DNA of 4,252 nt from a virus (lineage: Duplodnaviria > Heunggongvirae > Uroviricota > Caudoviricetes): positions 1 to 4,252 of IMG/VR virus record IMGVR_UViG_2648501206_000008; one strand, 5' to 3'. The notes beneath the pieces were generated by a model. That model was not told where the DNA came from. It did no database searches and worked only from the letters and a program-made list of their open reading frames with translations. Position numbers and translations under genes: made by a program. This document shows positions 2,423 through 2,602 of the stretch, in pieces; position 1 is the stretch's first letter; each line of letters starts with the position of its first letter.

Positions 2423-2602
2423 CTACTGTTCTTCTATTTTTTTACTGGAAATCAATCCACTGGTCATTTCATAACCGTTTGTGTGGCCACAGTAAGGGCA
2501 AATAATTGGCTCTTTATCCTTTCCTCCTGGATAGCCTCCACTGTGCTCCCAATAAATAAACTCTTTATTGCAACTTTCATTACTACATCTTGTATTGCTC
2601 AT
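2423..2602 (-). CDS. Hypothetical small Cys-motif protein with zinc-ribbon-like spacing (59 aa), between the terminator and the holin
   Basis: Not in the supplied track (below its length cutoff). ATG at 2602..2600 is preceded by GAGGGAG with a 7-nt spacer; stop TAG at 2425..2423. Translation MSNTRCSNESCNKEFIYWEHSGGYPGGKDKEPIICPYCGHTNGYEMTSGLISSKKIEEQ. Cys at 6, 11, 35 and 38 (C-x4-C ... C-x2-C). AT-rich relative to the neighbours. Same strand as the late genes. Confidence 0.45.
   Translation of the reverse strand: MSNTRCSNESCNKEFIYWEHSGGYPGGKDKEPIICPYCGHTNGYEMTSGLISSKKIEEQ

Follow-up and report, generated by a model that had tools for sequence, protein, structure and literature searches.

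A 59-residue predicted zinc-ribbon-like protein encoded by a portable cassette in the Q-to-holin slot of a lambdoid prophage, and the linkage of its family to restriction genes

According to its list of open reading frames (ORFs) and to domain scans, the minus strand of a 4,252-nucleotide stretch of viral DNA (IMG/VR record IMGVR_UViG_2648501206_000008, positions 1 to 4,252; the whole stretch is called the window below) represents the late-region junction of a lambdoid prophage. A 59-codon ORF with four cysteine codons lies there between the genes of a Q antiterminator and a holin. It is a protein-coding moron, carried in a portable cassette that includes a terminator, and it is the first ORF after the terminator tR'. 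Its product belongs to an unnamed family spread by mobile elements, whose genes are often co-transcribed with those of restriction enzymes. A prophage of Escherichia coli PEC422 is 100% identical to the window, and the ORF is entered there in RefSeq as WP_023154804.1, 'hypothetical protein'. The features of the locus, in the order of the minus strand, are the following:

4251..3571, minus strand: DUF968 gene, the first in this order
3557..2805, minus strand: Q antiterminator gene, YdfT type, 250 residues (PF03589 Antiterm, E=9.8e-54; RefSeq name 'antitermination protein Q')
2773..2730, minus strand: inferred late promoter pR', from resemblance to lambda pR'
2699..2671, minus strand: tR'-like intrinsic terminator, 8-base-pair GC-rich stem and a run of seven U (terminator scan)
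2669..2380, minus strand: cargo cassette of 290 base pairs (leader, ORF and terminator), edges from genome comparison
2663..2635, minus strand: candidate cassette promoter, from the positions of conserved motifs
2616..2610, minus strand: Shine-Dalgarno sequence GAGGGAG, 7 nucleotides before the ATG, read from the sequence
2602..2423, minus strand: gene of the 59-residue Cys4 zinc-ribbon-like protein (RefSeq WP_023154804.1), ATG at 2602..2600, TAG stop
2407..2378, minus strand: intrinsic terminator of the cassette, 9-base-pair stem and a run of five U (terminator scan)
2339..2314, minus strand: second hairpin with a run of six U, in the holin leader outside the cassette (terminator scan; -7.9 kcal/mol)
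2211..1894, minus strand: holin gene, LydA type, the first lysis gene (PF16083, E=8e-22; RefSeq 'phage holin family protein')
1907..1431, minus strand: GH24 lysozyme gene, after the holin
distal to the lysozyme gene, minus strand: spanin genes, then an HNH gene

A first-pass annotation of this DNA had pointed to the ORF on account of its strong Shine-Dalgarno sequence, its AT-rich composition and a C-x4-C...C-x2-C pattern, and direct reading bore out these traits together with the coordinates, strand and length. The same annotation called the ORF missing from the track supplied with the sequence. This may hold for that track, but not for public annotation, as RefSeq/PGAP lists a hypothetical protein in 15 of the 15 complete E. 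coli genomes which carry the ORF; the exact 59-residue protein has been recorded from at least 999 contigs. The cysteines occupy positions 6, 11, 35 and 38 (C6-x4-C11...C35-x2-C38). The G+C content is 37.8% in the ORF and 36.9% in the cassette, compared with 47.7% in the window, 47.3% in the Q gene and 48.7% in the holin gene.

The length of the ORF alone is insignificant because the window holds 45 ORFs of at least 30 residues, and conservation was therefore taken as the test. The lambda pR'-tR' leader (J02459, L097 222..416) retains an old and dubious annotation, 'orf-64', which is a reminder that ORFs in such leaders need conservation evidence. In an alignment of 60 diverse relatives C6, C11, C35 and P36 were found to be invariant, and G26, E31 and C38 nearly so. 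Comparison of the window ORF with Klebsiella/Salmonella-type phage copies gave a proportion of synonymous differences (pS) of 0.87-0.95 and of nonsynonymous differences (pN) of 0.12, the synonymous sites being nearly saturated, and the ratio of nonsynonymous to synonymous substitution rates (dN/dS) between the phage copies of Kp4864-1 and L010 was 0.037. The check proposed in the first-pass annotation, conservation of the cysteines and of the frame together with the substitution pattern, thus came out in favour of the ORF. Since both the frame and the cysteine positions are conserved, the ORF is, as judged from the alignments, a genuine gene on which purifying selection acts strongly. The alternative of a fortuitous ORF in a late leader that encodes nothing, which the number of ORFs in the window and the dubious lambda orf-64 might invite, is effectively refuted by the conservation of frame, cysteines and motifs across phyla, the dN/dS value, the confident structural model described below and the strong Shine-Dalgarno sequence.

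Both pR' and tR' precede the gene on its own strand, with no divergent unit in between, and the positions of these elements confirm the placement on the late strand beyond a terminator which had been ascribed to it. The putative pR' consists of a -35 element TTGCAT (2773..2768), a 17-nucleotide spacer, a -10 element TAGGAT (2750..2745) and, after 6 nucleotides, AACGATGGG (2738..2730), a 9-nucleotide match to lambda which we take to contain the sigma-dependent pause element AACGAT of that phage. Lambda pR' (J02459) shows the same geometry, namely TTGACT, 17 nucleotides, TAAATT, 6 nucleotides and AACGATGGG. The element is kept in strain MLI121, where the -10 hexamer is TAAGAT, and by this resemblance transcription would start near position 2738. 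The RNA of the tR'-like terminator folds with -12.4 kcal/mol (z=-2.7). The Rfam scan gave only a sub-threshold Trp_leader match, located on the pR'-tR' leader, and the tRNA scan gave none.

The lambdoid Q-S slot houses stx in Stx phages. The interval between Q and the holin of the window had been regarded as a cargo slot of this kind, and the comparison of E. coli prophages with the same Q, promoter and terminator upholds this, as they hold different cargo or none. In strain MLI121 (L073, 3077..5132), whose Q is of the YdfT type as well, two hypothetical genes and the gene of a 350-residue DNA methyltransferase just before the holin occupy the slot. In the K-12 prophage Qin (L074, 3074..4480), also with this Q type, it holds a short hypothetical ORF, cspF, cspB and ynfU, and a cargo-free Q-to-holin arrangement exists as well (L002). 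By these comparisons the interval is a cargo slot.

The cassette is placed directly after tR', and its edges could be read from genomes which share only one flank. On the left, 822 E. coli genomes match through the 3' end of Q, pR' and tR' as far as position 2670, where their similarity ends; on the right, about 1050 genomes of E. coli in which Q is of other types match only 2379..2213, the holin leader. The hairpin in the holin leader belongs to this common stretch, so that transcription from pR' would meet a further barrier there before the lysis genes. The whole cassette is present in 15 of 5426 complete E. coli genomes, each time with at least 99.3% identity. The same cassette is found behind three unrelated Q families, PF03589 (the window), PF06323 and DUF1133/PF06530, with different holins downstream. 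The properties characteristic of a moron were thus found, that is, an extra gene between otherwise adjacent genes, a deviant G+C content and a terminator of its own.

This terminator folds with -13.2 kcal/mol, and none of 200 shuffled sequences folded as well. In the window its hairpin and U-run start 16 nucleotides past the stop codon, and a homologous hairpin was found 28-39 nucleotides past the stop in all ten enterobacterial copies examined. The stem varies with its pairing kept (GCCCTGG/CTGGGGC, GCCTCGGC/GCCGGGGC, GCCTTGGC/GCCAGGGC, GCCTCGAC/GTCGGGGC). On the other side a local terminator of the Q-specific type precedes the called ORF start by 43-90 nucleotides in nine of the ten copies, the exception being L094.

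A leader of about 65 nucleotides is homologous between the copies of the cassette. In the window the candidate promoter in it reads TTCGAA (2663..2658), a 17-nucleotide spacer ending in TGc (2643..2641) and TATGTA (2640..2635). The motifs of the layout TTCG-N2, TGn-ending 17-nucleotide spacer and TATGnn do not vary among seven leaders drawn from five contexts; the spacer is constant in length and variable in sequence, and TG follows TTCG by 13-14 nucleotides. The divergent L094 leader has a similar, not identical, layout. Such a layout may be that of an extended -10 promoter, a weak one and a candidate only. The element has 3 of 6 matches in the -35 hexamer and is not called by a consensus promoter scan, because it lacks T at -7. 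As the element is conserved, expression in the lysogen may be possible. The first-pass annotation had expected expression only under Q antitermination unless the gene had its own promoter; the late position stands, and the reservation about a promoter gains weight from this conserved, if weak, promoter-like element. A hairpin sequestering the Shine-Dalgarno sequence was predicted for the window leader alone; RNAalifold gave no consensus structure for the seven leaders, and the idea was dropped.

The mobility of the cassette raises the question of whether it is a passenger without a role for the phage, which recombines easily between late-leader terminators and whose protein functions only in the Firmicute operons described below. 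The small number of near-identical E. coli copies does suggest recent spread, the low G+C content suggests a foreign origin, and both cassette junctions lie just past terminator U-tracts of similar sequence. The dN/dS value and the saturation of synonymous sites among enterobacterial phages tell against such neutrality, as do the wide spread of the cassette in prophages of Salmonella, Klebsiella, Citrobacter and Enterobacter and the maintenance of its Shine-Dalgarno sequence, leader motifs and terminator, and a passenger of this sort appears very improbable. A search of a phage collection gave only one good match, Klebsiella phage Kp4864-1, and tblastn against plasmids gave no match.

The AlphaFold2 model, made from eight sequences, has a mean confidence (predicted local distance difference test, pLDDT) of 84.7 and contains strands 2-5, 14-20, 29-34, 41-47 and 50-55. 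The domain predicted in this way is all-beta and zinc-ribbon-like, with five strands, which is in line with the zinc-ribbon-like spacing of the cysteines noticed earlier: the two conserved cysteine pairs form knuckles, each at a beta-hairpin of a small all-beta domain. One zinc ion would be held by the two knuckles C6/C11 and C35/C38, as inferred from the model. The family signature is C-x2(4)-C ... PGGK-[DE]-[KR]-E-x-I-x-CP[YW]CG ... MTSG. In the enterobacterial clade, and in a few members outside it, two inserted residues give the Cx4C form; the spacing in most relatives is CxxC. The invariant loop PGGK-D/E-K/R-E, which as PGGKDKE is the part of the model with the lowest confidence, is probably flexible, and the protein also carries the MTSG turn.

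The protein has a net charge of -2 and an isoelectric point (pI) of 5.5 (family median 6.2), is of a soluble type and has no hydrophobic segment; the highest 15-residue Kyte-Doolittle mean is -0.05, so that no transmembrane helix is predicted. With such properties, binding to another protein is more plausible than binding to a nucleic acid or an effector role at the membrane.

When the window protein and nine of its relatives were scanned against Pfam, NCBIfam, PHROGs and PADLOC, only sub-threshold matches to generic zinc ribbons appeared. The best Pfam match was Zn_ribbon_10 with 17 bits against a cut-off of 24.2, the best PHROG match had E=0.002, and there was none in PADLOC. Sequence searches of the PDB gave only spurious matches to C2H2 or rubredoxin knuckles, and no significant structural match was found among solved or predicted viral structures. 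Several named families were considered and rejected. The window protein did not match NF047912 (ECs_2282, putative zinc-binding), TIGR03655 (Lar family) or NF038384 (YnfU), and its relatives reached at most 21.6 bits against 37, 15-18 bits against 39.6 and 14.6-15.6 bits against 36, respectively. Identity with Com or Ogr_Delta was likewise dismissed, as no Pfam match to either was obtained.

The best hit among predicted viral structures (BFVD) was an Ogr/Delta-like zinc finger, and it is non-significant (template modelling score 0.55, E=1.3). It bears on another explanation, that of a small zinc-finger regulator or host-takeover factor which has nothing to do with restriction and binds RNA polymerase, the ribosome, mRNA or a chaperone. 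P2 Ogr, P4 Delta and Mu Com are phage Cys4 proteins of about 60-70 residues associated with late expression, and the position as first late gene is kept across the three Q families, with positions in the late module in phages of Gram-positive bacteria. Very high conservation across phyla would fit a universal target, and one family copy lies between dnaK and dnaJ. The likeness ends, however, at the level of sequence families: the Pfam result speaks against Ogr_Delta and Com, and the protein is acidic to neutral, not basic. We know of no need for an Ogr-type activator in a Q-type phage. Such a regulator would, moreover, leave the repeated operonic linkage to restriction enzymes unexplained, and it is considered quite unlikely.

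This linkage emerged from the distribution of the family. A word-indexed search detected seven clusters and an exhaustive profile search 149 clusters (50% identity) at E<=1e-3, with members nearly all of 50-90 residues; the range of the family extends from Clostridia to Proteobacteria. A degenerate DNA pattern for PGGK[DE]xE-x3-CPYC, run over the species representatives of GTDB and over viral contigs, gave 38 GTDB loci, every one a true member, and 22 viral contigs. The GTDB loci are mostly from Clostridia, the others coming from Bacilli (among them Niallia), Akkermansia, Bacteroidales, Halomonas, Cellvibrio, Magnetococcales, Desulfocapsa and Atopobium.

Several of the chromosomal members are embedded in restriction-modification (R-M) operons. 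In contigs of the Acetivibrio type the order is hsdM-X-hsdS with overlapping stops and starts, X being the family member, which here shares 53% identity with the window protein; hsdS is followed by an insert of varying content (an AAA_5 pair or a SEFIR/TIR protein) and then by hsdR. In an integrative element a family member lies 18 nucleotides downstream of the genes of the Bsp6I endonuclease and a C5 methylase. Further operons are hsdR-196aa-X, hsdR-X and, of type III, mod-res-X-GmrSD; hsdR-X was also found on a viral contig. Among type IV enzymes, Mrr adjoins a member in Neobacillus, and GmrSD does so in Akkermansia and Clostridia. Within two genes of the 38 loci GmrSD_N was counted five times and type I HsdR four times, besides Kiwa, AbiEii and recombinases; other neighbours from defence systems and mobile elements are OLD-like ATPases, ArdC-N, serine recombinases and integrases.

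Restriction genes make up about 0.1% of bacterial genes. R-M enzymes at 9 of the 38 loci, as found by a limited local search, therefore represent a strong enrichment, the baseline being bacterial genes overall and not small genes of mobile elements. An all-against-all BLAST of the neighbours revealed no partner gene common to the contexts, for which reason the target of the protein is probably widespread. The phage copies are always placed among late genes or where morons sit: in enterobacteria they follow Q, in a Jeotgalibaca prophage the copy precedes the holin gene, and in a clostridial phage it lies in the terL-portal interval. A literature search on the accession, on zinc-ribbon anti-restriction and on ORFs between hsdM and hsdS gave nothing on the family.

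Some neighbourhoods deserve mention in their own right. In the type I R-M operons with an embedded member, the stretch from hsdS to hsdR is a hotspot of variation (L019-L023, L028-L031; ~6470..8480 or 6385..8890) whose cargo is either a 268-residue protein with an AAA_5 (McrB-like) ATPase or a 329-residue protein with the SEFIR/TIR protein. A sub-clade from Firmicutes heads an operon X-240aa-255aa-193aa (L004 5539..8276; also L005-L009 and L014-L018), in which X has 56-61 residues, the 240-residue protein ends in a C-terminal zinc ribbon and the 255-residue protein begins with an N-terminal one. The operon is divergent from a gene with an Xre-type helix-turn-helix, is located in a chromosomal island near rpsF-ssb-rpsR and has no PADLOC match; it may be an undescribed system. 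The copy between dnaK and dnaJ is from a Ruminococcus metagenome-assembled genome (L067 5155..8000). Domain fusions (PIN_12 or GNAT with the zinc ribbon) are few and uninformative.

The linkage to restriction genes hints at a role in restriction conflicts. Taken as a whole, the best explanation in our estimate, with a probability of about 0.35, is that of a late moron whose zinc-ribbon product tunes restriction-modification. Since the cassette directly follows tR', its ORF would come first among the genes transcribed late under the control of Q. RNA polymerase modified by Q would read through tR' and the terminator of the cassette, from which it follows that synthesis of the protein would take place in bulk during the late lytic phase, and the weak, conserved promoter-like element of the leader might add a low level of expression in the lysogen. 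The protein would bind a conserved component of DNA restriction-modification; action through binding to a widespread protein target is suggested by the fact that it is not basic and has neither a catalytic domain nor a fixed partner gene. Binding would damp restriction or favour modification, the direction being that of Ral or Lar. This effect could ease the establishment of R-M operons carrying a family member in a naive cell and, in the phage, could help progeny DNA to cross restriction barriers.

The function assigned in this scheme, that of a zinc-ribbon protein binder which modulates restriction, is tentative. Modulation of restriction is favoured because it would pay both for an incoming R-M operon and for a phage releasing its progeny, and the DNA methyltransferase in the same slot of the sister prophage suggests that the slot is used for restriction evasion. 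It is tempting to speculate further that the family is an unrecognised pan-bacterial 'restriction companion', a zinc ribbon of 55-65 residues which binds and tunes the R-M machinery, is kept by R-M operons of several types for the sake of their own establishment and was captured by phages as a solo late gene, although this too is doubtful. Such a companion might act by restriction alleviation, by enhanced de novo modification or by guarding against anti-restriction, and the progeny DNA of lambdoid and Gram-positive phages would then leave the cell pre-adapted to restriction barriers; these modes and this consequence share the doubt attached to the companion as a whole.

A number of points weigh against restriction tuning. 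About three quarters of the family loci have no restriction gene within two genes, so the R-M association may reflect shared residence in mobile elements or defence islands. One direct R-M target is doubtful because the R-M types involved share no common subunit. Expression late in the cycle is odd for an anti-restriction factor, as Ral and Ocr act early. Co-transcription with a restriction enzyme could be as compatible with helping defence as with restraining restriction. The comparison of profiles with K-12 RalR, made because of the recurrent weak 'Lar-like' matches, gave an hhalign probability of 14.9% over 19 columns, out of register, and this candidate was rejected. Clustering of GmrSD with type I R-M is known in any case (PMC4619093), and some of the C(P)XCG micro-proteins are reported not to bind zinc (PMC11241148).

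The ambiguity of co-transcription leads to the main rival, in which the protein is a defence accessory of the lysogen, made from its own promoter and acting together with resident restriction or other defence systems, for instance as a guard or adaptor which senses phage anti-restriction proteins or boosts restriction. Read directly, the chromosomal contexts are parts of defence operons and islands, and the cassette has the classic layout of a moron, with a conserved promoter-like element and an insulating terminator on each side. There is also a precedent in a 61-residue protein which is held on HsdMS and released by Ocr or ArdA (10.1101/2023.04.06.535777). Against this stand the weakness of the promoter-like element, with no T at -7 and half of the -35 hexamer, missed by the scan, the solo occurrence of the phage copies without a partner, the lack of a membrane segment or enzymatic domain to serve as effector and the negative PADLOC result. 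We regard a defence accessory as unlikely, although less so than a regulator unrelated to restriction.

The precedent is RonA of Ronin, which resembles PrrC in that the activity of both is coupled to an R-M complex (10.1101/2023.04.06.535777). Both are linked to hsdM and hsdS, and the present family includes members translationally coupled between these genes. RonA is a 61-residue membrane protein (same source), whereas the window protein has no hydrophobic segment and its family also occurs solo in phages.

The closest systems with the direction of effect assumed for restriction tuning are Lar/RalR of the Rac prophage and lambda Ral. Lar/RalR is borne by a prophage, has about 60 residues and carries two cysteine knuckles including CPxCG, and the link to alleviation of type I restriction is that of Lar; weak matches of family members to TIGR03655 and to PHROG 6422 'Lar-like' add to the likeness. 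TIGR03655 is named 'Lar family restriction alleviation protein', and RalR is annotated in K-12 as the DNase toxin of a type I toxin-antitoxin pair. The two differ in that the second knuckle of the family aligned to the first of RalR, and in that Lar belongs to the early recombination region of Rac whereas the window gene is the first late gene. Lambda Ral alleviates restriction and enhances modification by EcoKI (PMC5512222); its gene belongs to the early pL operon and it is not a zinc protein. It has no relation to the window protein in sequence or fold. What they would have in common is the functional model proposed here, a small phage protein shifting a host type I system toward modification or away from restriction.

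Other comparisons concern position or architecture. YnfU of Qin in K-12 (NF038384, putative zinc-binding) is a small cysteine-rich protein from the same slot between Q (YdfT) and the holin, but it is encoded on the opposite strand and belongs to a different family. With stx and other moron cargo the window gene shares the character of an extra gene of deviant G+C content among conserved late genes, bringing along a terminator and perhaps a promoter; it differs in being very small, in having a candidate promoter only and in the recurrence of its cassette behind unrelated Q families. The one-domain C(P)XCG micro-proteins of Haloferax volcanii are stand-alone proteins of fewer than 70 residues with a single zinc-ribbon-type domain and a CPxCG knuckle (PMC11241148, PMC10716476). 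They are archaeal, chromosomal and unrelated in sequence, and the models of the HVO proteins remained below threshold for the family.

Small proteins are the least understood part of the gene content of phages and defence islands. The kind of gene described here is known, a moron for a small zinc-ribbon protein in the Q-S slot; what is new is an undescribed family, its linkage to restriction across phyla and a minimal mobile cassette. A family of about 150 clusters under very strong constraint is absent from the curated family libraries scanned, and it has a repeatable genomic habit: it shares operons with restriction genes of types I, II and III, adjoins type IV enzymes and, in enterobacterial phages, takes the first late slot regardless of the Q and holin around it. 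If it does modulate restriction, it would represent a new and very compact class among the restriction-alleviation and anti-restriction factors and would explain an accessory gene within many R-M operons. If its function lies elsewhere, the cassette nevertheless illustrates clearly how a minimal moron has been shuffled among unrelated late leaders.

A few features elsewhere in the window were also noted. The YdfT-type Q protein (2805..3557, minus strand) contains a stretch resembling the DnaJ-type CXXCXGXG zinc finger (PF00684, E=3e-7, just under the cut-off). An i-spanin-like ORF of 130 residues (1447..1055, minus strand) with a sub-threshold DUF2570 match is unannotated in RefSeq PEC422, and the lysC/Rz1-like gene which partly overlaps it out of frame (1236..895, minus strand) is annotated there. 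Between the spanin genes and the HNH gene an AT-rich ORF of 83 residues (449..700, plus strand) runs antiparallel to the late operon. It corresponds to the RefSeq hypothetical protein WP_021530159.1, has a weak coiled-coil (LZ3wCH) match and is followed by a hairpin, GGCGCCTTCTAGGCGCC, at 707..723; it looks like a second insert of the moron type.

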